NCBI GenBank assembly: GCA_049512315.1
Contig: JBEKXF010000003.1
Span: 62,001 to 126,000 of the forward strand
Direction of reading: 5' to 3'
Source of the DNA: Candidatus Aminicenantales bacterium
GTDB lineage: Bacteria > Acidobacteriota > Aminicenantia > Aminicenantales > Saccharicenantaceae
DNA length: 64,000 bases
A program made the translations under genes and the position numbers. This document shows, piece by piece, positions 48,060 through 58,000 of this stretch. Below the pieces are notes generated by a model. It was not told the DNA's origin and did no database searches. It worked only from the letters and a program-made list of their open reading frames with translations. How positions within the stretch are numbered: position 1 is the stretch's first letter; the number at the start of each line of letters is the position of its first letter.

Positions 48060-49442
48060 ATGAACACGAAAGCCGTGATAAAAGCGCCGGCGGACGAAGG
48101 GCTGAGCCGCCGGAATTTCCTCAGGACCTCGGCCACAGCGGGCCTGGGCCTGGCCTTCGCCGGAAAAGTCCTCGGCCAGGCGGCCCCTCAACCCGCCAAG
48201 CCGTCCACGGCCAAAAATCCCGACGAGCTGCGCGTCGCCGTGATCGGCTGCGGCGCCCAGGGACGGGTCCTCATCGAGTCCATCCTCCGGATCCCGTCGA
48301 TCCGGATCGCGGCCATCTGCGACATCTGGTCCTACAGTCAGACCTATACAGCCAACTACGTCAAGAAATACGGGCACATCGTCAAGGTCTACGAGGATTA
48401 CCGGGACCTCCTGGCCAAGGAAAAAGACCTCCAGGCCGCGATCGTGGCGACACCCGACTGGGTCCACGCCGAGCACGCCAACGCCTGCCTTCGCGCCGGG
48501 CTCCACGTCTACTGCGAGAAGGAAATGTCGAACTCGCTCGAGAAGGCGCGGTCGATGGTCCTGGCGGCCCGCGAAACCGGAAAGCTCCTCCAGATCGGCC
48601 ACCAGCGCCGCTCCAACCCGCGCTACATCCACGCCATCGACCGCCTCATCCGCGAGAAAAGCCTCCTCGGCCGGGTCACCGCGGCCTACGCCCAGTGGAA
48701 CCGGGCCAAGAGCGACCTCCTCGGCTGGCCCGAGAAGTACACGATCGACCAAGCCACCCTCGAAAAGTACGGCTACAGCTCCATGACGGAGTTCAGGAAC
48801 TGGCGCCTGTACAAGAAATTCGGCGGCGGGCCCATGGTCGACCTCGGCTCGCACCAGATCGACCTCTTCAGCTGGGTCTTCGGGGCGAACCCCCGGTCCG
48901 TCATGGCCAGCGGCGGGACGGACTTCTACAAGAACTGGGAGTGGTACGACAACGTCATGGCCATCTACGAATTCGATGCCGCGCAGGGCGCGGCCCGGGC
49001 CTTCTATCAGGTCCAGACGACGACCCAGCACGGCGGTTTTTATGAGACGTTCATGGGCGAGAACGGGTCGATCGTCCTCTCCGAGATCCCGACGAAGGGA
49101 AATTGGGCCCTACGGGAGCCGACCGCCCCGGAATGGGATTCCCTGGCCAAGGCCGGGCTTCTCCAGTCCGAGACGGCCCCCATCCAGAAGAGCGCCTCGA
49201 AGAATATCTTCGTCGACGTCCGGGTCACGGCCGAGGCGGGCCGCTGGCCGCTGCCCGTGGAGCTGGCCAAGCCGGCCCACCAGCCCCATCTTGAGAACTT
49301 CTTCAACGCCGTCCGGTCCGGCACGCCCCTGACCTGCCCGGCGGAGCTGGCTTACGAATCGTGCGTGGCCGTCCTCAAGGCCAACGAGACCGTCAAGGCC
49401 CGGAGGATCACGGAATTCCGGCCGGAGCAGTTCAAAGCATGA
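48060..49442 (+). CDS. Tat-exported Gfo/Idh/MocA oxidoreductase
   Basis: SRRNFLR signal; VIGCGAQG, ATPDWVH, YCEKEM, QIGHQRRS and DLGSHQID. Confidence 0.93.
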   Translation: MNTKAVIKAPADEGLSRRNFLRTSATAGLGLAFAGKVLGQAAPQPAKPSTAKNPDELRVAVIGCGAQGRVLIESILRIPSIRIAAICDIWSYSQTYTANYVKKYGHIVKVYEDYRDLLAKEKDLQAAIVATPDWVHAEHANACLRAGLHVYCEKEMSNSLEKARSMVLAARETGKLLQIGHQRRSNPRYIHAIDRLIREKSLLGRVTAAYAQWNRAKSDLLGWPEKYTIDQATLEKYGYSSMTEFRNWRLYKKFGGGPMVDLGSHQIDLFSWVFGANPRSVMASGGTDFYKNWEWYDNVMAIYEFDAAQGAARAFYQVQTTTQHGGFYETFMGENGSIVLSEIPTKGNWALREPTAPEWDSLAKAGLLQSETAPIQKSASKNIFVDVRVTAEAGRWPLPVELAKPAHQPHLENFFNAVRSGTPLTCPAELAYESCVAVLKANETVKARRITEFRPEQFKA

Positions 49443-51817
49443 GGGCCGCCGGACGAATCGCCCGCCCGGCCCTGGGCCTTCTCGTCCTCGGGCTTTTCGC
49501 CGCCGTTTCGGCCCATGCCGGAGACCTGAAGCTGAAACCCTGGGACGGCAATCGGACAACCCCCTCTCACTTCATCCCCCTCCGCGACGAGAATAACGGG
49601 CTCATCGTGCCGACTGATACGGGCCCGATGCCCTTTTCAGCCCGCTTCACCTGCGGCCCGTGCCATGATTACAAGACGGTCCAGGGCGGCTGGCACTGGA
49701 ACGCCATGAAAGCGGAGAAAAGCGGACGCCCCGGCGAGCCGTGGATCTGGCTCGACCCGAAGACCGGGACCATCTTGCCGCTCTCCTACAGAAAATGGCC
49801 GGGCGCCTGGGACCCGAGAGTCCTCCGGCTCAACCCTTGGGATTTCACGAAGCTCTTCGGCCGGCATATGCCCGGCGGCGGACCCGCCGAGCCGGGATTC
49901 GAGGACGTCTTCCCCGGCATGGATTCGCGCTGGAACGTCTCGGGCAAGGCGGAGATCAACTGCCTCGCCTGCCACAATAAGTCGGGTCGCCAGGACCACA
50001 GCGAATGGGCGAAACAAATGCTTCGCGAGAATCTGCGCTGGGCGGCCACGGCCGCGGCCGGGATCGGGGAGGTCGGCGGCATGGCTTCGCGCCTCAAGGA
50101 GACCTGGGACGTCTACGACGGGCCCAACCTTGACGACCATGAATGGGCCGTGGCGCCGTCGGTCAAGTACAGGACGGTCGATTTCGACGGCAAGCACCGC
50201 TATTTCTTCGACATCGCCTATCCCCCCGATGACCGGAACTGTCTAGCCTGCCACTCGGTCTCGCCCGTCAAAGAAACGCGGGCAACGGCTGCGACTGACG
50301 TCCATACAGCCAAGGGCATCAAATGCGCCGAGTGCCATCGGAACGACCTTCAGCACGGCATCGTCCGGGGCTACGAAGGCGAAGCGATGGACACCGGCAA
50401 CCGGTCGGCCGATTCCTTCACCTGCCGGGGCTGTCACTTGGGCGAAGACCCGACCGGGAAGAGGATCGTGGTCCCGGGGCGCCTGGGCGCTCCTGACCCC
50501 AAGCATACTGGGATCCCTCTTGTTCACTTTAGGACGCTCGCCTGCACCGTCTGCCATTCCGGGCCGTTGCCCGAGAAGTCCTGGGCGCGGGTCCGGACGT
50601 CGCGGGCCAACCGGCTCGGGGTATACGGGGTCGCCCGGTGGTCGACGGACCTACCCGCCATCATCGAACCGGTCTACATGAAGGATGGGCAGGGCAAGAT
50701 CGGGCCCCAAAGGCTTGTCTGGCCGGCGTACTGGGCCCGGACTGCAGGCAAAGAGATCGTCCCGCTGCAGCCCGGCGTCGTGGAGGCCGCGGCGGGGGAT
50801 ATTCTCAAGTGTGAGGATCGGATCGCGGGGGTCCTCGCGGCCCTCTCCCAGACCTGCGACGAGAATGAAGTTCCCGTTCTGGCGGCGGGCGGATGGCTCT
50901 TCGAGGTCAACGTCGACGGAGGGCTTGACGCATCGCCCATGGTCGCTGCGGAAAAGGCCGGCGGCGGGGATGAGGCGCATCCCTTCTGGGGCACGAAAAA
51001 GGACGGGGTGATATCGCCGCTCATCCCCGATTTCAACCCCTCCGCTCAGGACAAGGACCCCGCGATCGAGCCCAGGATCCAATCCGTCCTCGAAGGTCTG
51101 GGCACGGTCGCCGGCGCGCCGGGGAAACCGATCGTCGTGGTCAGAAAAACGCTTTACCAGATCACGGACGGAAACCTCGCTTCGGCCGGGGCGCCGGCCG
51201 GGCTCGCGGGCGTTCCGGGACCGGGGTGGCTGAAAGACGATCGAATCGAGCCTCTGGCCGCGGAATTCGACATCCGGACGGTGGCGGCCACGGCCGGGAC
51301 CGAAAAAACCCTCACCGAGGAACAAGTCGGGCTCGTCCTCAAGGCCCTGGACCGGGGGGAAGCGCAGGGCAAGAAGCCGGAAAAAGGCGGGTCTTCCCCT
51401 TTCGCCTATATCTCCGGAGGACGGGCCTTCCGGCTGGACAAAGGCGGCCGGCTTGTCTCGGAGGCCGCCGGCAGTGCCGCTCCCGTGACCTGGCCCCTCG
51501 CGCATAACGTCCGCCCCGTCCAGCAATCCCTGGGCTGGAACGGCTGCACGGACTGTCATACGGCCGACTCCAAGTTTTTCTTCAAGACGGTCATGGGGAC
51601 AGGACCGCTTCTGACGCAAAACGTCGCATCGCGGTCCTCGACATCGCTCATGGGCGCCGGCGGCCTCTTCCACCGGGTCTTCGGGCTCACCTTCGCCGTG
51701 AGGCCTTTCTTCAAGGTCGTCCTCGCCCTGACGATTCTCGCGACCGGCGCGGTCCTGCTCGTCTTTTTCGTTGTCATCGCGGGGAAGCTGGCCGGGCTCA
51801 TCGAAAAGAGGTCATGA
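49439..51817 (+). CDS. Membrane-anchored multiheme c-type cytochrome (7 CxxCH)
   Basis: Signal peptide ending in AHA; CGPCH, CLACH, CLACH, CAECH, CRGCH, CTVCH and CTDCH; C-terminal TM helix; ATGA overlap with the upstream gene. Confidence 0.9.
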   Translation: MRAAGRIARPALGLLVLGLFAAVSAHAGDLKLKPWDGNRTTPSHFIPLRDENNGLIVPTDTGPMPFSARFTCGPCHDYKTVQGGWHWNAMKAEKSGRPGEPWIWLDPKTGTILPLSYRKWPGAWDPRVLRLNPWDFTKLFGRHMPGGGPAEPGFEDVFPGMDSRWNVSGKAEINCLACHNKSGRQDHSEWAKQMLRENLRWAATAAAGIGEVGGMASRLKETWDVYDGPNLDDHEWAVAPSVKYRTVDFDGKHRYFFDIAYPPDDRNCLACHSVSPVKETRATAATDVHTAKGIKCAECHRNDLQHGIVRGYEGEAMDTGNRSADSFTCRGCHLGEDPTGKRIVVPGRLGAPDPKHTGIPLVHFRTLACTVCHSGPLPEKSWARVRTSRANRLGVYGVARWSTDLPAIIEPVYMKDGQGKIGPQRLVWPAYWARTAGKEIVPLQPGVVEAAAGDILKCEDRIAGVLAALSQTCDENEVPVLAAGGWLFEVNVDGGLDASPMVAAEKAGGGDEAHPFWGTKKDGVISPLIPDFNPSAQDKDPAIEPRIQSVLEGLGTVAGAPGKPIVVVRKTLYQITDGNLASAGAPAGLAGVPGPGWLKDDRIEPLAAEFDIRTVAATAGTEKTLTEEQVGLVLKALDRGEAQGKKPEKGGSSPFAYISGGRAFRLDKGGRLVSEAAGSAAPVTWPLAHNVRPVQQSLGWNGCTDCHTADSKFFFKTVMGTGPLLTQNVASRSSTSLMGAGGLFHRVFGLTFAVRPFFKVVLALTILATGAVLLVFFVVIAGKLAGLIEKRS

Positions 51818-52512
51818 CCATGTTCGCCGTCATCACGATCCTGGCACTCCTCATCTTCGGGCTCGCGCTGGCCTTCCGCCGTTTCAGAATCCAGCACCCG
51901 TCGGCGGAAGGGAATATTCTCTACGCCGCGATCATCCGCGATTTCCGGCGGTGGCTGGGCCAGAGGATTCCGGCAGTCCTATCGAAGCCCGCGCCGGCGG
52001 GCTGGCCGGCCTGGATTAAAGGCTTCCGGCTGTGGCGGCTCCCGCTTTTCGAGAAATGGCTCCTTATTGGCTTCTACGGAAGCTTCCTCTATCTCGCGGC
52101 CAGCGGGTTTTTCTTCGCCGTCTTCATCAAGCGGGGACTGTACGGCTTTCCCCTGGTCCTTCACGTCATGGGGGGGGCGCTTTTCGCCGTCTGCCTGACT
52201 CTGATCGCCTTCCTCAGGGCGCGGCGGTTTACGTTCAATCCCGGACCTCTCGCGCTGCCCGGGGACCTGGACGCCATAAGGAAATTTCGGATTCCGTGGG
52301 GCGCTCGGGACTGGGCCAAGGGCTTCTTTTGGCTGTTCCTTCTGGCCGGCTTCTCGCTTGCCGCCTCGGCCCTCCTCCCGATGCTCCCCTGGTTCCCCTA
52401 CGAGGGACAGATCATCCTTTTCGGGTGGCACCGCTGGAGCGCGCTGGTTTCGCTGCTCGCGGCCATCGCCTTCGCCGACCTCGGGCTCTTCCGTCCTAAG
52501 CCCGAAGCCTGA
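51814..52512 (+). CDS. Polytopic membrane protein, cytochrome b-like
   Basis: About 5 TM helices with two intramembrane His (LVLHVMGG, GWHRWSA); ATGA overlap with the cytochrome gene. Confidence 0.6.
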   Translation: MTMFAVITILALLIFGLALAFRRFRIQHPSAEGNILYAAIIRDFRRWLGQRIPAVLSKPAPAGWPAWIKGFRLWRLPLFEKWLLIGFYGSFLYLAASGFFFAVFIKRGLYGFPLVLHVMGGALFAVCLTLIAFLRARRFTFNPGPLALPGDLDAIRKFRIPWGARDWAKGFFWLFLLAGFSLAASALLPMLPWFPYEGQIILFGWHRWSALVSLLAAIAFADLGLFRPKPEA

Positions 52513-52520
52513 GCAGGAAG

Positions 52521-52730
52521 TTATCCGGGTTTTTTGAATCCCAAGAGATCCCCCGGCTGGCATTCCAGGACCTCGCAGATCTTTTCGAGCGTCGAGAACC
52601 GGACGGCCCTAGCATGACCCTGTTTGAGGATCGAGAGGTTGGCCATGGTGATACCCACCTTCTCCGAAAGCTCCGTGAGCGACATCTTCCGCTTAACCAT
52701 CATCAGGTCGAGATTGACTTCAATCGGCAT
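52521..52730 (-). CDS. Xre-family HTH transcriptional regulator (YozG-like)
   Basis: MSLTELSEKVGITMANLSILK..ARAVRFSTL..CQPGDLL. Confidence 0.93.
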   Translation of the reverse strand: MPIEVNLDLMMVKRKMSLTELSEKVGITMANLSILKQGHARAVRFSTLEKICEVLECQPGDLLGFKKPG

Positions 52731-52738
52731 GATCCACC

Positions 52739-53269
52739 TCAGACGGTCAGGTCCTGGTCCTGCTGGAGCTTGACGCCGGTCTCGAGGACTTTGGCGATGA
52801 CCAGGAATCCGAAACCCAGAAGCATGGTGCTCAGGCTTCCATAAAGGACCCGGATCGCGGTTTCCGAGAAGAGGGCCCAGGAAAAAACAGCCGGATCCGT
52901 GCCGGTCGACGACAGCGCGGTGCCTACGGCATGAATGAGCACAAGAACAAAAACGGCATATGCGATTCCGCGGATGTGCCGCGGGCTGGCGGGGCTGAAA
53001 GGTTCGCCGCGGGTGATTGAGCCGAGAAGCCGGAAGATGCAGTAGCAGATGAAAAAGTAAACAGGGCCGGCCAAACCGAAGTCCAGCAAAACGCGGAGGT
53101 CGAGTCTGAAGCCGGCGTCGGATGCTCGATGGACAAGACTGGGCGAAACGGTTAACATGATCGTGAAAGCGCTGATGAATACCAAGCCGTAAAGAATGAG
53201 AAGCGTGATGAGGACAATCCTGAGCGCTTTGACCGTCGGAGACACTCCCAAAACCATTTTCTCTGCCAC
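52739..53269 (-). CDS. DUF2975 family membrane protein
   Basis: Four TM segments, GEPFS and C-terminal GVKLQQDQDLTV; adjacent to a YozG-like HTH gene; GTG start with AGGAGG RBS. Confidence 0.88.
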   Translation of the reverse strand: MAEKMVLGVSPTVKALRIVLITLLILYGLVFISAFTIMLTVSPSLVHRASDAGFRLDLRVLLDFGLAGPVYFFICYCIFRLLGSITRGEPFSPASPRHIRGIAYAVFVLVLIHAVGTALSSTGTDPAVFSWALFSETAIRVLYGSLSTMLLGFGFLVIAKVLETGVKLQQDQDLTV

Positions 53270-53291
53270 ACGAGCCTCCTTTTCCGTTATT

Positions 53292-53354
53292 TATCGATAA
53301 TCAATATATGGTCAAACATACTGTTTGTCAAGAAATAATTATTGTTTATCGATA
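53292..53354 (-). promoter_or_regulatory. Promoter flanked by two palindromic operators
   Basis: Minus strand TTGACA(53331-53326)-17-TATATT(53308-53303); palindromes TATCG-N5-CAATA (53292-53306) and TATTG-N5-CGATA (53340-53354). Confidence 0.75.
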
Positions 53355-53480
53355 CATTTTTTCTTTTCCAAGGTTGCCCCTGATCCTGAATTTGCCATCG
53401 GGTTGCAGCGATCTCAACGGAGAATGTGCAACACGCTCCTCGAGGAGCGTGTTTTAGAGATTGAAGAACAGGAGGTTTCC

Positions 53481-54029
53481 ATGAAAAAGGCCATCATCAT
53501 CGTCCCCCTGACCATCACCCTTGTCTTAGCGGTCACCGTAGCCTCTTTCGCCCAGCAGACGGTCAAGATCGTCGTCGTCAATTCCGCACGCGCCTTCGAG
53601 CGGTCGGCCGAAGGCAAGAAGGCCATCGCCCAACTCCAGCAGCGGGACGCGAAGATCAAGGCGGACATCCAGAGCAAGGAAGATGCCATCCGAGCCCTGG
53701 AGAGTCGGCTCAATACGGGCCGGATGACGATGACCCAGGACGCGCTCCTGGCGCTGCAGGTCGACATCGACAAGAAGTCGACCGAACGGAAACGCTACGA
53801 GGAAGACGGCGCCCGCGATTTTGCCCAGTTCCGGGACAACCTCGTGGCCCGGATCCGGGCCGAAATGGTCACGATCATCATCGCTCTGCGCAAGGAAAAA
53901 GGCTACGAACTTGTCCTCGACCTAGCCTCGAGCGGCGTCGTCGATTTCGATCCGGCCCTCGACGTGACCGACGAAGTCATCCGCCGCTATGACGCGTCCA
54001 AAGCCGCCGCTCCCCCGGTCAAGAAATAG
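53481..54029 (+). CDS. OmpH/Skp family periplasmic chaperone
   Basis: AGGAGG RBS, signal peptide, KIVVVNS, long coiled coil, KEKGYELVLD and DVTDEVI. Confidence 0.9.
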   Translation: MKKAIIIVPLTITLVLAVTVASFAQQTVKIVVVNSARAFERSAEGKKAIAQLQQRDAKIKADIQSKEDAIRALESRLNTGRMTMTQDALLALQVDIDKKSTERKRYEEDGARDFAQFRDNLVARIRAEMVTIIIALRKEKGYELVLDLASSGVVDFDPALDVTDEVIRRYDASKAAAPPVKK

Positions 54030-54065
54030 GACGGTCCCTGGTTCCCGTCCCCAGTCCCCGGCGCC

Positions 54066-54440
54066 TTGAATAATCCGGCCCGGGCGATCTATATCTTCGG
54101 AGAGCCGAAAGCGGGGGTCGTCAGCCCGGGCAGTCCCATCAAGCTGGCCGTCCATTTCCAGGGAACCTCCCAGCAGAGGAAAGAGCTCGAGATCTGGCTC
54201 CAAGGCTGGAGCCTGTCGCTGGCCGAGATGAACTATCTGAGGACAGGGTTCCATTCCGAGGGGTTGCTCGACGTCCACATCGTCGGCGGCGAGGACGTCA
54301 AGGGGACCGTCTCCGTCGCCGCCAAGGTCAACGCCCCGCCCGACGACCTCCAGGAGCTCCCGCTCGGCAATAAGCCATCGTTTTTATCAGCGGCTTTACG
54401 TGGCTTTTCCCCTTCCGTCATGGCTTCCGCTACTCAATGA
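54066..54440 (+). pseudogene. Orphan fragment resembling the C-terminal domain of large PEP/pyruvate-binding-domain proteins
   Basis: LEIWLQGWSLSLAEMNYLRTGFHSEGLLDVHIV recalls that C-terminus (recognised from memory); weak TTG start, no RBS, degenerate nucleotidyltransferase-like motif. Confidence 0.55.
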
Positions 54441-54550: not shown

Positions 54551-54677
54551 CTCGGATCTTCATTAACAAAAGATTGCCGCATCCCCCAAGCCGGGTCCCC
54601 CCTCCGCCACGGGGTCGATCGGGCGGCCTCGGCAGCACCCTCCCGCGTCCGTCGTGCCGTCCGTCCGATTATGATAT

Positions 54678-54706
54678 TTGATAAAAACCGGAATTTTCGA
54701 CATACT
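54678..54706 (+). promoter_or_regulatory. Sigma70-like promoter directly before apbE (leaderless)
   Basis: TTGATA-17-CATACT, 6 nt upstream of the ATG at 54713; no SD. Confidence 0.6.
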
Positions 54707-54712
54707 GCGGGC

Positions 54713-55723
54713 ATGCCGAGGCGACGCGATCTCTCCGTTCATCGCTTCGCCCATGAGGCGATGACCACGGTTTTCGAGGTTTTCATCGCCGGCAAGTCCA
54801 AGGAATACGCCCGCCAGGCGGCCCGGGCGGCCTTCGACGAGATCGACCGGATCGAGCGCCTGCTCAGCCGTTTCGACCCCTCGAGCGAGATCAGCCGGGC
54901 GAGCCGCCTGCGGCCCGGCGAGAAGATGATGGTCGGGGTCGAGACCATCGAGTGCCTGGCGACGGCCGCCCGCGTTCAGGCCGAAACGGCCGGGGCCTTC
55001 GACATCAATTTCCGGGCAGTCCCGCCTCTTACCAGATCCGTCCAGATGCGGGCAGCCCCGCTTCTCAGCGGGGCCGTCCCTGTCCGTCCCGCCCACCCTA
55101 TCGCGACGCGGACACCGAAAGCCGTCTCCGGCCGCAGCGATGGCCCGCCGAATCTCCTCAACCTCATGAGCATGAGGATGGTCGCCGGAGGGTTCGAGGT
55201 CGAGCGGCTCCCCGGCAGAGCCAGAAAAAAAGCACTTCCCCTGGACCTCGACCTCGGGGCGGTCGGAAAGGGCTACGCCCTGGACAGGGTCCGCGAGGTC
55301 CTCGCCGACTGGAGCGTTGGGAACGTTCTCGTCGACAGCGGAACGAGCACGGCCCTCGGCCTCGGGCCCGGGCCCCGCTCCGGGCAGCGGGGCTGGCCGG
55401 TCGGGACCGCCTCGGCCTGGGAATGCCCCGGAATGCCGAAAGACGTCCAGCTCGCGGACCGGGCCCTGAGCGGGTCAGGGACCGAGGTCAAGGGCGCCCA
55501 TATCATCGACCCGAGGACGGGCCGTCCCGCCCGCCGCCACCTGGCCGCCTGGGCCTCCCATCCCTCGGCCGCGGTTTCCGACGCCCTCTCCACCGCATTC
55601 CTGGTGATGAGGACGGAGGAGGTCGGACGCTACTGCCGGACCCGTCCCGAAGTCTGGGCCCTCGTGATTCTCCCGGGGAAAAAGTGTAAAATATTCAATG
55701 CGAACGCCATCGCCCAGCCATAG
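54713..55723 (+). CDS. apbE: FAD:protein FMN transferase (ApbE family)
   Basis: AMTT, LSRFDPSSEI, GAFD, LDLGAVGKGYALD, ALSGSG, HIIDPRTG and SDALSTA; no signal peptide seen. Confidence 0.9.
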   Translation: MPRRRDLSVHRFAHEAMTTVFEVFIAGKSKEYARQAARAAFDEIDRIERLLSRFDPSSEISRASRLRPGEKMMVGVETIECLATAARVQAETAGAFDINFRAVPPLTRSVQMRAAPLLSGAVPVRPAHPIATRTPKAVSGRSDGPPNLLNLMSMRMVAGGFEVERLPGRARKKALPLDLDLGAVGKGYALDRVREVLADWSVGNVLVDSGTSTALGLGPGPRSGQRGWPVGTASAWECPGMPKDVQLADRALSGSGTEVKGAHIIDPRTGRPARRHLAAWASHPSAAVSDALSTAFLVMRTEEVGRYCRTRPEVWALVILPGKKCKIFNANAIAQP

Positions 55724-55739: not shown

Positions 55740-56423
55740 ATGAAAAGAGCGCTTTGTTCGATCTCCATCGCCCTCCTCGGCCTGGCCCTCGTCCTCCCGA
55801 CGGCCGGGACGGGCTCCCAGGACCAGATGAAGGAGACCTTGAAGCTCCAGCTGCCCAAGCCCATGTTCGTGGGGACGCCGAAGAACATCCGCACACCCAA
55901 CCTCGAACCCATCACCGGGAAGCCGCGCGGCCCGTTCCTGGTGCCCGTGGGGACCGTCCTGCTTTCGGCGGGAAAGCCCGTCACCGCGAGCGACAAGGAG
56001 CCCGTCATCGGCGAGCTCTCGTTCATCACGGACGGCAAGAAGTCGGGTGAGGACGGCTATTACGTCGAGCTGGGACCCGGCCTGCAGTGGGTCCAGATCG
56101 ATCTCGGCAAGTCCCAGGCCCTGTCTGCGATCGTGGTCTGGCATTATCACAGCCAGGCCCGTGTCTACCGCGACGTCGTCGTCCAGGTCTCGGACGACAA
56201 GGACTTCATCGGCGGCGTGACGACTCTCTACAACAACGATCACGACAATACCTCGGGCCTCGGCATCGGCAAAGACAAGGAATACATCGAGACCTTCGAA
56301 GGGAAACTCGTCGACGCCAAGGGGGTCAAGGCCCGCTACGTCCGGCTCTGCAGCGCCGGGAATACCTCGAACGACATGAACCATTACGTGGAGGTTGAGG
56401 TCTACGGTCTTCCCGCCAAATGA
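55740..56423 (+). CDS. Secreted discoidin/F5-8 type C-like protein
   Basis: Signal peptide; GKPVTAS, ITDG, WVQIDLG, VVQVSDD, ARYVRL and EVEVYG beta-sandwich motifs. Confidence 0.82.
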   Translation: MKRALCSISIALLGLALVLPTAGTGSQDQMKETLKLQLPKPMFVGTPKNIRTPNLEPITGKPRGPFLVPVGTVLLSAGKPVTASDKEPVIGELSFITDGKKSGEDGYYVELGPGLQWVQIDLGKSQALSAIVVWHYHSQARVYRDVVVQVSDDKDFIGGVTTLYNNDHDNTSGLGIGKDKEYIETFEGKLVDAKGVKARYVRLCSAGNTSNDMNHYVEVEVYGLPAK

Positions 56424-58000
56424 CAAAGAAGGCCTTTTGGGGGCTCTTTGCGTGCGCCGTCGTCGGCGCGCTCTTTCTCCGGACCTTTCGCCTGGACGTC
56501 CGGCCGATGCACAGCGACGAGGCCAATCAGGCGGTCAAGTTCGGCGACCTCCTCGAGCGGGGCGAGTACCGCTATGACCCGAAGGACCACCACGGACCCA
56601 CGCTCTATTACCTGACGCTCCCCGTGGCCAGAGCCCTTGCGGGGAAGTCGCTGGCCGCCGTCAGTGAAACGACCCTGCGACTCGTCCCGGCCATCTTCGG
56701 GACCGGGCTTCTTCTCCTTCTCCTCCTCTTTTTCGGCGGGCTCACCCGGGAGGCGGTTTTCTCCGCGGCATTCCTGGCGGGCCTTTCGCCGGCCCTGACC
56801 TATTACAGCCGGTTTTACATCCAGGAGATCGTCCTCGTCTTTTTCCTGGCCGGGCTCATGGCCGCGGGATGGAAATACTTCCAGACCCGGTCCGGATGGT
56901 GGGCGGCGGCGGCAGGCTTCGCCGCGGGGATGATGTACGCGACCAAGGAGACGTCCGTCATCCTTTTCGGCGCCATCGCGGGAGCCGCCGTGATCGACCA
57001 CCTCCTCCGCCCGAAACCAGCCAAGCCCCAGCCCCTGAAATGGCCTGCTGCCCTCCTTCATGTCGTGCTTTTCCTGGCCTCGGGTTCCATCACGGCCTGG
57101 CTTTTTTTCACGTCCTTCCTGAAGAATCCGAAGGGTCTGATCGATTCGGTCCACGCCTTCGGGATCTATTTCAGCCGGGCCGGAGAGGCCGGGGTCCACG
57201 CTCAGCCATGGTTCTATTACATCAAGACCCTGCTCTATTCGCAGTTCGGGCACGGCCCGGTCTGGAGCGAGGCCTTCATCGTGGCCCTGGCCGTCGCCGG
57301 CAGCATCTTCGCCTTCGGCTCGGAGCCGGGAAAAGACGGCCACCCACGGCTCGTCCGTTTCATTTTCTCCTTCACGGTCCTGGCCTTGGCCGCTTACTCC
57401 GTCATCCCCTATAAGACCCCCTGGAACCTCCTCCCATTCTATCTGGGTGTCATCCTCCTCGCCGGGAACGGGGCCGGATTGCTCTGGCGGGCGGGGAGAT
57501 TCATGGTCGTCAAGGTCATCGTCCTTTCCATCATGGCTCCCGGGATCCTCAACCTGGCCTACCAGGACCACCGGGCCAACTTCGTGGATTACGCGAACCC
57601 GACGAACCCCTACGTTTACGCCCAGACGATTCCCGACTTTATTAAGCTCATCCGGGCCGTCGAAGGGATCGCGGCCGGGCACCCCGAGCATGAGAGGATG
57701 TTGATCAAGGTCGTGGCCCCGCCCGACGAAACTTGGCCCCTGCCCTGGTACCTGCGTCGCTTTACGCGCGTCGGCTACTGGACGGACATCGCACAGGCGG
57801 GCGACCTGCGCGACGCGCCCGTCGTCATCGCCGCGGCCGCTTTTAGCGGGGAGGCCGGCCGGGACCTCGACAGCGGCTACCAGTCGGCGTTCTACGGGCT
57901 GCGGCCCGAGGTTGTTCTCTCGCTCTATGCGCGTCAGGACTTGTGGAATGCCTATCTCAAGGTCCGGACAGCGAAGGAATCGGCCAAGCCCGGCCGGTAA
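56420..58000 (+). CDS. TIGR03663/Agl23-like GT-C (PMT-like) membrane protein
   Basis: RPMHSDEA (DE motif), YDPKDHHGP, YYSRF, ATKE, YKTPW and WPLPWYLR; many TM segments; ATGA overlap. Confidence 0.82.
   Translation: MTKKAFWGLFACAVVGALFLRTFRLDVRPMHSDEANQAVKFGDLLERGEYRYDPKDHHGPTLYYLTLPVARALAGKSLAAVSETTLRLVPAIFGTGLLLLLLLFFGGLTREAVFSAAFLAGLSPALTYYSRFYIQEIVLVFFLAGLMAAGWKYFQTRSGWWAAAAGFAAGMMYATKETSVILFGAIAGAAVIDHLLRPKPAKPQPLKWPAALLHVVLFLASGSITAWLFFTSFLKNPKGLIDSVHAFGIYFSRAGEAGVHAQPWFYYIKTLLYSQFGHGPVWSEAFIVALAVAGSIFAFGSEPGKDGHPRLVRFIFSFTVLALAAYSVIPYKTPWNLLPFYLGVILLAGNGAGLLWRAGRFMVVKVIVLSIMAPGILNLAYQDHRANFVDYANPTNPYVYAQTIPDFIKLIRAVEGIAAGHPEHERMLIKVVAPPDETWPLPWYLRRFTRVGYWTDIAQAGDLRDAPVVIAAAAFSGEAGRDLDSGYQSAFYGLRPEVVLSLYARQDLWNAYLKVRTAKESAKPGR

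Follow-up and report, generated by a model that had tools for sequence, protein, structure and literature searches.

A conserved module of a Tat-exported dehydrogenase, an OTR-fold heptahaem cytochrome and a membrane cytochrome b-like protein that may use an ApbE-installed flavin

Respiratory enzymes that face the periplasm, such as FdnGHI, [NiFe] hydrogenase-1, the LacABC/ThuAB glucoside 3-dehydrogenase and Geobacter CbcL, follow a common plan, which in the FdnGHI and hydrogenase-1 type combines an exported catalytic subunit, an electron-transfer subunit and a membrane cytochrome b of the Ni_hydr_CYTB/FdnI type. A similar layout is found in three adjacent genes of a 64,000-nucleotide stretch of contig JBEKXF010000003.1 (hereafter the window; Candidatus Aminicenantales bacterium, assembly GCA_049512315.1), which encode a dehydrogenase of the Gfo/Idh/MocA family (here Gfo) exported by twin-arginine translocation (Tat), a heptahaem cytochrome c and a cytochrome b-like membrane protein. 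Unlike FdnGHI, hydrogenase-1 and LacABC, which use Mo, NiFe or flavin adenine dinucleotide (FAD), this trio is proposed to work with captive nicotinamide adenine dinucleotide (NAD) and a flavin mononucleotide (FMN) arm. The trio is a real, conserved module and apparently an undescribed variant of the periplasmic respiratory dehydrogenase plan. No published description of it or of a flavinylated Gfo was found in a search that left most of the subscription literature uncovered, and a large supplementary table of PMC8238504 may list such clusters.

Each part of the module has described relatives. GFOR of Zymomonas and the BT2158-type enzymes (NF058561) are likewise Tat-exported, with a Gfo fold and bound nicotinamide (PMC8121099). 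They differ in that GFOR uses a second sugar to regenerate its cofactor, and an unidentified second sugar has been proposed as the electron acceptor of BT2158 (PMC8121099). Genes for a lyase (AP_endonuc_2), a 3-keto-disaccharide hydrolase and ThuA lie near BT2158-type systems as they do here. The cytochrome is similar to OTR of Shewanella oneidensis (1SP3; TIGR04315) in its fold, the order of its haems, the long gap before the last one and seven bis-His haems, and it differs in the absence of the Lys-ligated haem 2, its ~20% identity, its C-terminal anchor, its own cytochrome b and its link to a dehydrogenase. MmcA of Methanosarcina acetivorans (TIGR04314) is also an OTR-related, membrane-associated heptahaem protein without haem 2 and works as an electron conduit (PMC11024163), whereas the cytochrome described here is bacterial, falls below the TIGR04314 cut-off and is not encoded in an rnf operon (RnfD and FMN_bind were not found in the host genome, G000). 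Finally, an ApbE without signal peptide, beside or fused to its probable target, is known from the fumarate reductase of Klebsiella, whose ApbE is cytoplasmic, and from trypanosomatid ApbE-FRD fusions (PMC12052999, PMC8238504, PMC11334425). In the accounts of ApbE-flavinylated proteins, the Ser/Thr site is on an exposed loop and the partner is a membrane cytochrome; unlike these, the candidate target here is a Tat-exported Gfo/Idh/MocA protein and its motif is degenerate. Gfo and DoxX are unmentioned in the main text of two flavinylation surveys (PMC8238504, PMC11334425), and the 2021 survey kept only those ApbE or FMN-binding genes that encode a signal peptide (PMC8238504).

The original prediction saw in the three genes a conduit from dehydrogenase to quinone. 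Synteny and the OTR fold of the cytochrome speak for this idea, which lacked a converter from hydride to single-electron transfer, and its premise that the bound cofactor needs an outside oxidant is not forced, since in GFOR the reduction of fructose returns the bound NADP to its oxidised form (PMC8121099). The missing converter is probably FMN on Thr390 of the Gfo, attached by the ApbE-family protein encoded at 54671–55723, outside the coordinates originally considered. Because NAD(P)H donates a hydride and haems accept single electrons, a flavin is expected between the two. We assign a probability of about 0.5 to a chain, proposed from sequence, in which electrons would pass from the substrate to bound NAD, FMN on T390, the c-haems, haem b and quinone, in the oxidative direction. 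The genes concerned are the following:

48060–49442, + strand: Tat-exported Gfo/Idh/MocA dehydrogenase (P0002), 460 aa
49439–51817, + strand: heptahaem cytochrome c (P0001), 792 aa, with OTR fold, signal peptide and C-terminal transmembrane anchor
51814–52512, + strand: cytochrome b-like membrane protein (P0003), 232 aa, with an H117/H206 pair predicted near the periplasmic face
54671–55723, + strand: ApbE-family FAD:protein FMN transferase (P0004), start codon uncertain, conserved core from 54761

The first three reading frames overlap by ATGA at 49439–49442 and 51814–51817, as had been noted, and a scan of the window for promoters and terminators gave nothing informative for them. The loci examined comprised 80 homologues, an even sample of 15 from Acidobacteriota and 40 from samples of Planctomycetota and Verrucomicrobiota, with three duplicates. 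A Gfo gene is directly upstream of the cytochrome gene at 80 of the 91 loci with a close homologue and enough flank (9/9, 49/49, 3/3, 11/17 and 7/12 by locus set, plus the window), and the synteny that the conduit idea called for extends across Acidobacteriota, Planctomycetota and Verrucomicrobiota. The cytochrome b-like gene is downstream of the cytochrome gene, or fused to it, at 97 of 101 loci. Five of the 11 loci without an adjacent Gfo gene have one elsewhere, five gave no match (four belong to a divergent cytochrome branch) and one was outside the test. The Gfo (E<1e-100) occurs in 17 of 301 Planctomycetota genomes, 15 of them with the cytochrome, and in 13 of the 16 Planctomycetota genomes with a close cytochrome; a close cytochrome occurs in 10 of 301 Acidobacteriota genomes, all 10 with the Gfo. 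Within one Aminicenantes clade, the bare trio is found in unrelated neighbourhoods (L048–L073). The Gfo, the cytochrome and the membrane protein are very probably coupled in function. A complex prediction for the compact orthologous Gfo-cytochrome pair L133 scored 0.67, against 0.64 for one unrelated control, which allows no verdict and is not used as evidence. In the Kiritimatiellae loci L198, L199 and L201, the Gfo gene is apart from the cytochrome and follows genes for electron transfer flavoprotein (ETF) and ETF:quinone oxidoreductase on the same strand (Pfam checked for L199).

The first protein is a twin-arginine Gfo/Idh/MocA dehydrogenase, as predicted: it carries the motif SRRNFL, scores 22.9 bits with TIGR01409 (cut-off 16.7) and contains the N- and C-terminal Gfo/Idh/MocA Pfam domains, above cut-off, with an NAD-type Rossmann fold (GxGxxG, Asp88). 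Lys154, Asp261 and His265 occupy the usual catalytic positions and presumably have the usual roles. The best PDB identity is ~20%, with no close structural template to fix the substrate, and the hidden Markov model (HMM) NF058561 for the BT2158 glycoside 3-dehydrogenase gave 84.7 bits against a cut-off of 750. The features of interest are:

48105–48122, + strand: twin-arginine motif SRRNFL, RRxF in 79/85 orthologue open reading frames (ORFs)
49152–49280, + strand: family-specific inserted loop, aa 365–407, modelled as coil; proposed flavin arm
49227–49229, + strand: Thr390 codon, near-invariant Ser/Thr in the context D-V-R-V-T; proposed FMN attachment site

The insertion precedes the last helices and brings the distance between anchors to 61–113 aa in 67 loop-family relatives, against 37–52 aa in 20 paralogues; the ordinary Gfo paralogues examined are without it. 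In G000, the 3.55 Mb genome (96.6% complete) that contains the window, one of the 15 Gfo paralogues bears the loop-family signature, with 516 bits versus 172 for the next. The structure model of the Gfo has a mean predicted local distance difference test score (pLDDT) of 90.8, and the loop is a flexible coil with pLDDT 62–66 over aa 371–390. The T390 column is Ser/Thr in 80/80 orthologues, in 120/120 relatives found with a distant query and in 65/67 metagenome relatives, or 45/47 when these are dereplicated at 80%, against a loop background of 11% and 20/47 at the next-best loop column; the metagenome counts come from a MAFFT alignment, a type not immune to bias in loops. The published ApbE target motif is D-x-x-[ST]-G-A-[ST] (PMC12052999). 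Among the relatives, the four residues that end at the T390 site grade from VRET and VRVT through ADAT and AGTS to AGAT and SGAT, with GA[ST] at the column in 9 of the 47 dereplicated sequences and DGVSGAT in L320, its Thr in register with T390. Ser/Thr is on the column in 25 of 33 Acidobacteriota relatives without the cytochrome, and one of the 33 is truncated. A search for the canonical motif across the G000 proteins returned four matches, none linked to the locus. At L119:4951–7918, a tandem pair of loop-family Gfo genes, both with the Ser/Thr, is upstream of the cytochrome.

The ApbE protein matches PF02424 at 125.8 bits (cut-off 25.6) and keeps the triad S269, H277 and D304, which among 63 orthologues is conserved as Ser in 62, His in 63 and Asp in 62. 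It has no signal peptide, and a hydrophobic stretch upstream of the conserved start was seen in 5 of 61 orthologue ORFs, four of them from the divergent branch. It is the sole ApbE found in G000, where other ApbE substrates of the RnfG/NqrC type (FMN_bind) and RnfD/NqrB were not found. Its gene is 2.2 kb downstream of the trio, past a few inserted genes, and in many orthologous loci it directly follows the cytochrome b gene. ApbE linkage extends to relatives without the cytochrome: of 33 loop-family Gfos of Acidobacteriota, chosen regardless of their neighbours, 31 have an ApbE gene no more than 3 kb away, versus 1 of 7 lower-scoring ones, and ApbE-Gfo fusions account for 16 of 120 relatives. 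Twelve of 14 genomes in which the trio has no adjacent ApbE encode a close ApbE elsewhere, and among four same-order genomes without the module three gave no ApbE match and one a weak match. Cytoplasmic ApbEs and ApbE-target fusions are known (PMC12052999), and a cytoplasmic enzyme could reach a Tat substrate ahead of its export. We consider it likely that T390 carries FMN and that this ApbE puts it there.

Several further observations concern ApbE. Between the cytochrome b and ApbE genes (52521–54440) are a helix-turn-helix regulator (52521–52730, - strand), a DUF2975 protein, an OmpH-like protein and a 124-aa ORF; in a same-genus genome a similar helix-turn-helix gene and a toxin-antitoxin-like pair are found in this place, so the spot takes insertions. 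General decay of ApbE by frameshift was considered and rejected, the rate of 4/70 resembling those of the Gfo (4/80) and the cytochrome (6/121), and these rates point mostly to assembly errors. The ApbE-Gfo fusions L190:574–2745 and P0284–P0302 have an RR Tat-like motif at the junction, and an internal start, processing or self-flavinylation are possible. In the Planctomycetota loci L143, L145–L148 and L140, a divergent heptahaem gene is near an ApbE with a lipoprotein-like leader and a loopless Tat Gfo, mostly on the opposite strand, a second link among the cytochrome family, ApbE and Gfo. At L238:2511–7401, genes for ApbE, a loop-family Gfo and DoxX are followed by an unrelated small heptahaem protein and a cytochrome b561-like gene, which may provide a third sink.

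The cytochrome proved to be the secreted seven-CxxCH protein of ~790 aa that had been proposed, with motifs at residues 72, 175, 268, 296, 329, 369 and 703 (its composition predicts 0.009), a hydrophobic signal at the N-terminus and a single transmembrane helix at the C-terminus. All seven motifs are kept in 119/120 close homologues and in 124/150 cluster representatives, many of the exceptions being fragments. No curated whole-protein family cut-off is passed: the TIGR04315 (OTR) HMM gave 23.8 bits (cut-off 375) and TIGR04314 (MmcA) gave 11.8 bits, and at most 34 overall (cut-off 250). The protein is part of a large unnamed family with 1075 matches among 7999 candidates scored and 328 clusters (50% identity, E≤1e-30), in which the close homologues bearing names are from Ca. 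Aminicenantes. A model built from 150 sequences has a pLDDT of 92.6 and a predicted template modelling score (pTM) of 0.90. Its only match with Z≥8 among 48,161 PDB representatives is OTR 1SP3 (Z 8.9, root mean square deviation 4.7, 305 aligned, model residues 41–754), the other rows of the comparison being single helices. Since a Z of 8.9 is only moderately above the usual background, an independent profile match matters: hhalign against OTR homologues gave 98.7% and E 2.6e-16 over 113 columns that span four haems (4–7), with haems 1–3 misaligned or unaligned in both global and N-terminal comparisons. Foldseek returned no match at E≤0.001, with 1SP3 at rank 27, and PDB sequence searches returned weak haem-motif matches only. 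The feared assignment to a characterised family of unrelated function did not materialise, the protein having the OTR fold without the catalytic haem. The gap between six clustered haems and the seventh, also part of the original prediction, is real, with 329 aa against ~170–185 aa in OTRs and ~160–190 aa in compact homologues, and roughly 160 aa of it is a lineage-specific insertion; it is not, however, a separate domain with an orphan haem, since the 1SP3 match over residues 41–754 shows the last haem folding back into the OTR core. Two stretches of the gene are of interest:

49856–49879, + strand: OTR haem-2 site remnant FGRHMPGG, read by eye from the sequences; octahaem sisters read CGxCHPGG
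50798–51478, + strand: haem-free variable region, aa 454–680, much shorter in compact homologues

Haem 2 of OTR is the Lys-ligated catalytic haem (PMC11024163). The octahaem sister proteins L037, L039, L040, L044 and L149 have eight haems and CGxCHPGG where the family described here has FGRHMPGG, which appears to mark the lost haem as haem 2, an assignment based on these sisters and on the range of the structural match, direct N-terminal profile alignment having failed. Seven distal His (44, 86, 289, 306, 356, 363, 689), one per haem, are present in 149–150 of 150 rows, and an extra one, H143, is at the former haem-2 site in 120. Because the catalytic haem is lost, as in MmcA, the cytochrome looks like a non-catalytic electron wire with OTR fold. 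In a tree of the shared core (42 rows from a chosen subset of loci, without MmcA), the Gfo-linked heptahaems form one group (support 81/81) within a radiation that includes octahaems. The loss of haem 2 looks independent of that in MmcA, the closer relatives being octahaem, and the long-branch octahaem L149 falls among the heptahaems, leaving the number of losses unsettled. Octahaem sisters (L037:9032–11665, L040:6431–8830, L038, L044, L149) have a CxxxxCH first haem, a retained haem 2 and a fused membrane domain, FdnI-like in some, and form an unnamed OTR-related lineage; those of L037 and L038 are among ArsR/Acr3/ArsC-like genes (by eye). In L280–L285, OTR-like domains occur in proteins of ~965 aa with 13–14 CxxCH and an N-terminal membrane domain.

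The third protein had been described as having about five transmembrane segments and two intramembrane His. Five hydrophobic segments and the conservation of H117 and H206 bear this out, and a third His, H28, is not conserved. H117 and H206 are kept in 37/39 and 39/39 separate copies, respectively. Among 51 rows flagged as fusions, 49 keep the two His and the remaining two are truncated fragments, so that fusion to the cytochrome c is counted in 49 of 135 near-full-length representatives. The positive-inside rule predicts a position near the periplasmic face for both His. A four-helix core with two His pairs was not found in P0003, whereas several FdnI-like sister proteins keep four His, so a redox loop is not expected, and the simplest reading of this one pair would be a single haem b with no transmembrane charge transfer by the module itself. 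P0003 has no Pfam match; the fused homologue L121 matches PF01292 at E 1.2e-4, below the cut-off, and PF01292 is found on 16% of the members of the P0003 neighbour cluster in the Atlas.

In the proposed mechanism, the signal-less ApbE would attach FMN to Thr390 in the cytoplasm, where the Gfo would fold with NAD before its export through Tat. The enzyme would then oxidise its substrate, probably at a sugar or glycoside hydroxyl, since 3-keto-glycoside pathway genes surround the trio; the window, a region of sugar catabolism, also encodes additional Gfo proteins, AP_endonuc_2 TIM barrels, a 3-keto-disaccharide hydrolase and ThuA. Bound NADH would hand its hydride to the FMN carried by the flexible loop, and the flavin would release single electrons into the seven bis-His c-haems, from which they would reach one haem b near the periplasmic face and then quinone. 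This step would separate no charge by itself, because the one His pair left in the membrane protein is that on the periplasmic side. Reoxidation of the quinol could fall to cytochrome bd, which is present in G000 together with a cytochrome c assembly gene and a MenA-like prenyltransferase that scores below its cut-off. A group of two tetrahaem cytochromes and a cytochrome b-like gene at G000:C5:118869–120897 is a possible partner or second conduit. The heptahaem cytochrome with its cytochrome b would be one of at least two exchangeable sinks. Loop-family Gfos are linked to alternative membrane partners: DoxX adjoins 20 of the 33 that lack the cytochrome in Acidobacteriota, and in the two Planctomycetota genomes that have the Gfo without the cytochrome, a small membrane protein is encoded upstream instead. 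In one Acidobacteriota genome, G002, F5/8, PMT-like and ApbE genes accompany the Gfo, and no electron sink could be identified.

A number of observations weigh against this chain. All conservation and linkage counts come from related sequences and are not independent. No [ST]GA[ST] occurs in P0001–P0004, the D-V-R-V-T context departs from the canonical D-x-x-[ST]-G-A-[ST], and the suggested flavin link of T390 rests on a motif gradient aligned across a variable loop; an earlier hmmalign alignment, since superseded by MAFFT, scattered the loop and gave Ser/Thr at the column in just 59/111, and in 7 of the 33 Acidobacteriota relatives the Ser/Thr is 1–2 residues upstream of the column (TGAS in one). 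The ApbE-Gfo fusions are probably one clade and retain an internal RR motif. Of the 14 genomes with a stand-alone trio, 2 gave no ApbE match. Only 25 of 44 Aminicenantia-like loci have an ApbE gene inside 8 kb, the fetched flanks of some AGAT-bearing loop-family Gfos, such as L323, L328 and L334, contain none, and a same-genus genome with an intact trio has a frameshifted copy. The divergent cytochrome branch has no loop-family Gfo (0/5 genomes), so the cytochrome family as a whole is not bound to this Gfo, and such a Gfo is adjacent at 0 of 16 'distant' cytochrome loci, some with a Gfo elsewhere. FdnI binds quinone near its second His pair, which is absent from the membrane subunit here. Regarding menaquinone, MenB was over its cut-off in 0 of 21 genomes and the futalosine MqnA/D domain was not found in G000; a quinone pool made from salvaged naphthoate is plausible.

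The alternative that survives best, although we consider it unlikely, keeps the wiring and changes its purpose: a quinol or low-potential donor would feed the haems, FMN would reduce NAD, and the Gfo would be a periplasmic reductase or would modify envelope glycans with the F5/8 and PMT-like proteins. Sequence carries no direction, no PDB entry is close enough (~20% identity at best) to fix the substrate, and the haems of MmcA, at -100 to -450 mV, operate reversibly (PMC11024163). F5/8 and PMT-like genes accompany the Gfo also in loci that have DoxX in place of the cytochromes (L193, L194, L234, L237, L239), but they are found in the fetched flanks of only 4/33 and 5/33 loop-family Gfos, respectively. 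Against the reverse direction, electron flow from menaquinol to NAD+ is uphill by ~250 mV, and 3-keto-glycoside catabolic genes are also in the window.

Slightly less likely still is a conduit without covalent FMN on T390, in which the flavin would be held non-covalently, for example by an ApbE-like FAD subunit carried through Tat with the Gfo, and T390 would be structural or an O-glycosylation site for the co-encoded PMT-like protein. The non-canonical motif fits this idea, as do the fusions, which would suit a stable partner, and the tight binding of FAD by ApbE (Km 0.1 uM; PMC12052999). Nevertheless, the transferase triad is kept in nearly all of the 63 orthologues, relatives show GA[ST] or the full motif at the T390 column, and the Ser/Thr tracks ApbE (31/33) far better than PMT (5/33).

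It is improbable that the Gfo regenerates its bound NAD(P) by itself, in the manner of GFOR or of the proposal for BT2158, with the cytochromes serving another periplasmic partner in a merely shared operon. GFOR requires no acceptor (PMC8121099), the cytochrome and Gfo genes are apart in several Kiritimatiellae and Planctomycetota genomes, and the divergent cytochrome branch does without a loop-family Gfo. However, the only loop-family member among the G000 paralogues is the cytochrome-coupled one, the three genes relocate together, on their own, into unrelated neighbourhoods, separated Gfo and cytochrome genes co-occur in 4 of 5 genomes tested, and cytochrome-free relatives often carry another membrane redox protein instead. 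Catalysis by the heptahaem protein itself, as a tetrathionate, nitrite or hydroxylamine reductase taking dehydrogenase electrons in the periplasm, is suggested by the OTR fold and by H143 at the former haem-2 site (120/150 rows) and is highly improbable given the loss of the haem-2 CxxCH, seven distal His for seven haems with no open site, a TIGR04315 score of 24 bits against 375, and MmcA, which has the same loss and acts as a conduit (PMC11024163).

Returning to the oxidative chain, its extension to a class can be offered tentatively, at somewhat less than even odds: a widespread, undescribed group of Tat-exported Gfo proteins would hold captive NAD and an ApbE-installed FMN on a swinging loop and deliver electrons to interchangeable membrane sinks, DoxX in many and, in Aminicenantia, Planctomycetota and Verrucomicrobiota, the non-catalytic OTR-fold heptahaem protein paired with a cytochrome b that holds a single haem. 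A divergent ApbE would read a new motif, D-x-R-x-[ST], the emptied haem-2 pocket might receive the loop-borne FMN, and saccharolytic anaerobes regarded as 'fermentative' would possess a quinone-linked oxidation of sugars.

Two more genes of the window travel with the loop-family Gfo across phyla, including some DoxX loci:

55740–56423, + strand: secreted F5/8-type (discoidin-like) protein
56420–58000, + strand: PMT-like (TIGR03663) membrane glycosyltransferase

The F5/8-type protein has conserved His135, His137 and His215 and an NND motif, and G000 also encodes a decaprenyl-phosphate phosphoribosyltransferase.

How Tat-exported NAD(P) enzymes dispose of their electrons where there is no free nicotinamide is an open question, to which the module offers a concrete and testable answer. 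If the proposal is true, ApbE substrates would gain a new protein class and a new motif, several hundred unnamed heptahaem proteins (the 328 clusters) would acquire a function, and bacteria would provide a parallel to MmcA in turning OTR into a wire. The metabolic picture of Aminicenantia, Phycisphaerae and Kiritimatiellae would change as well.

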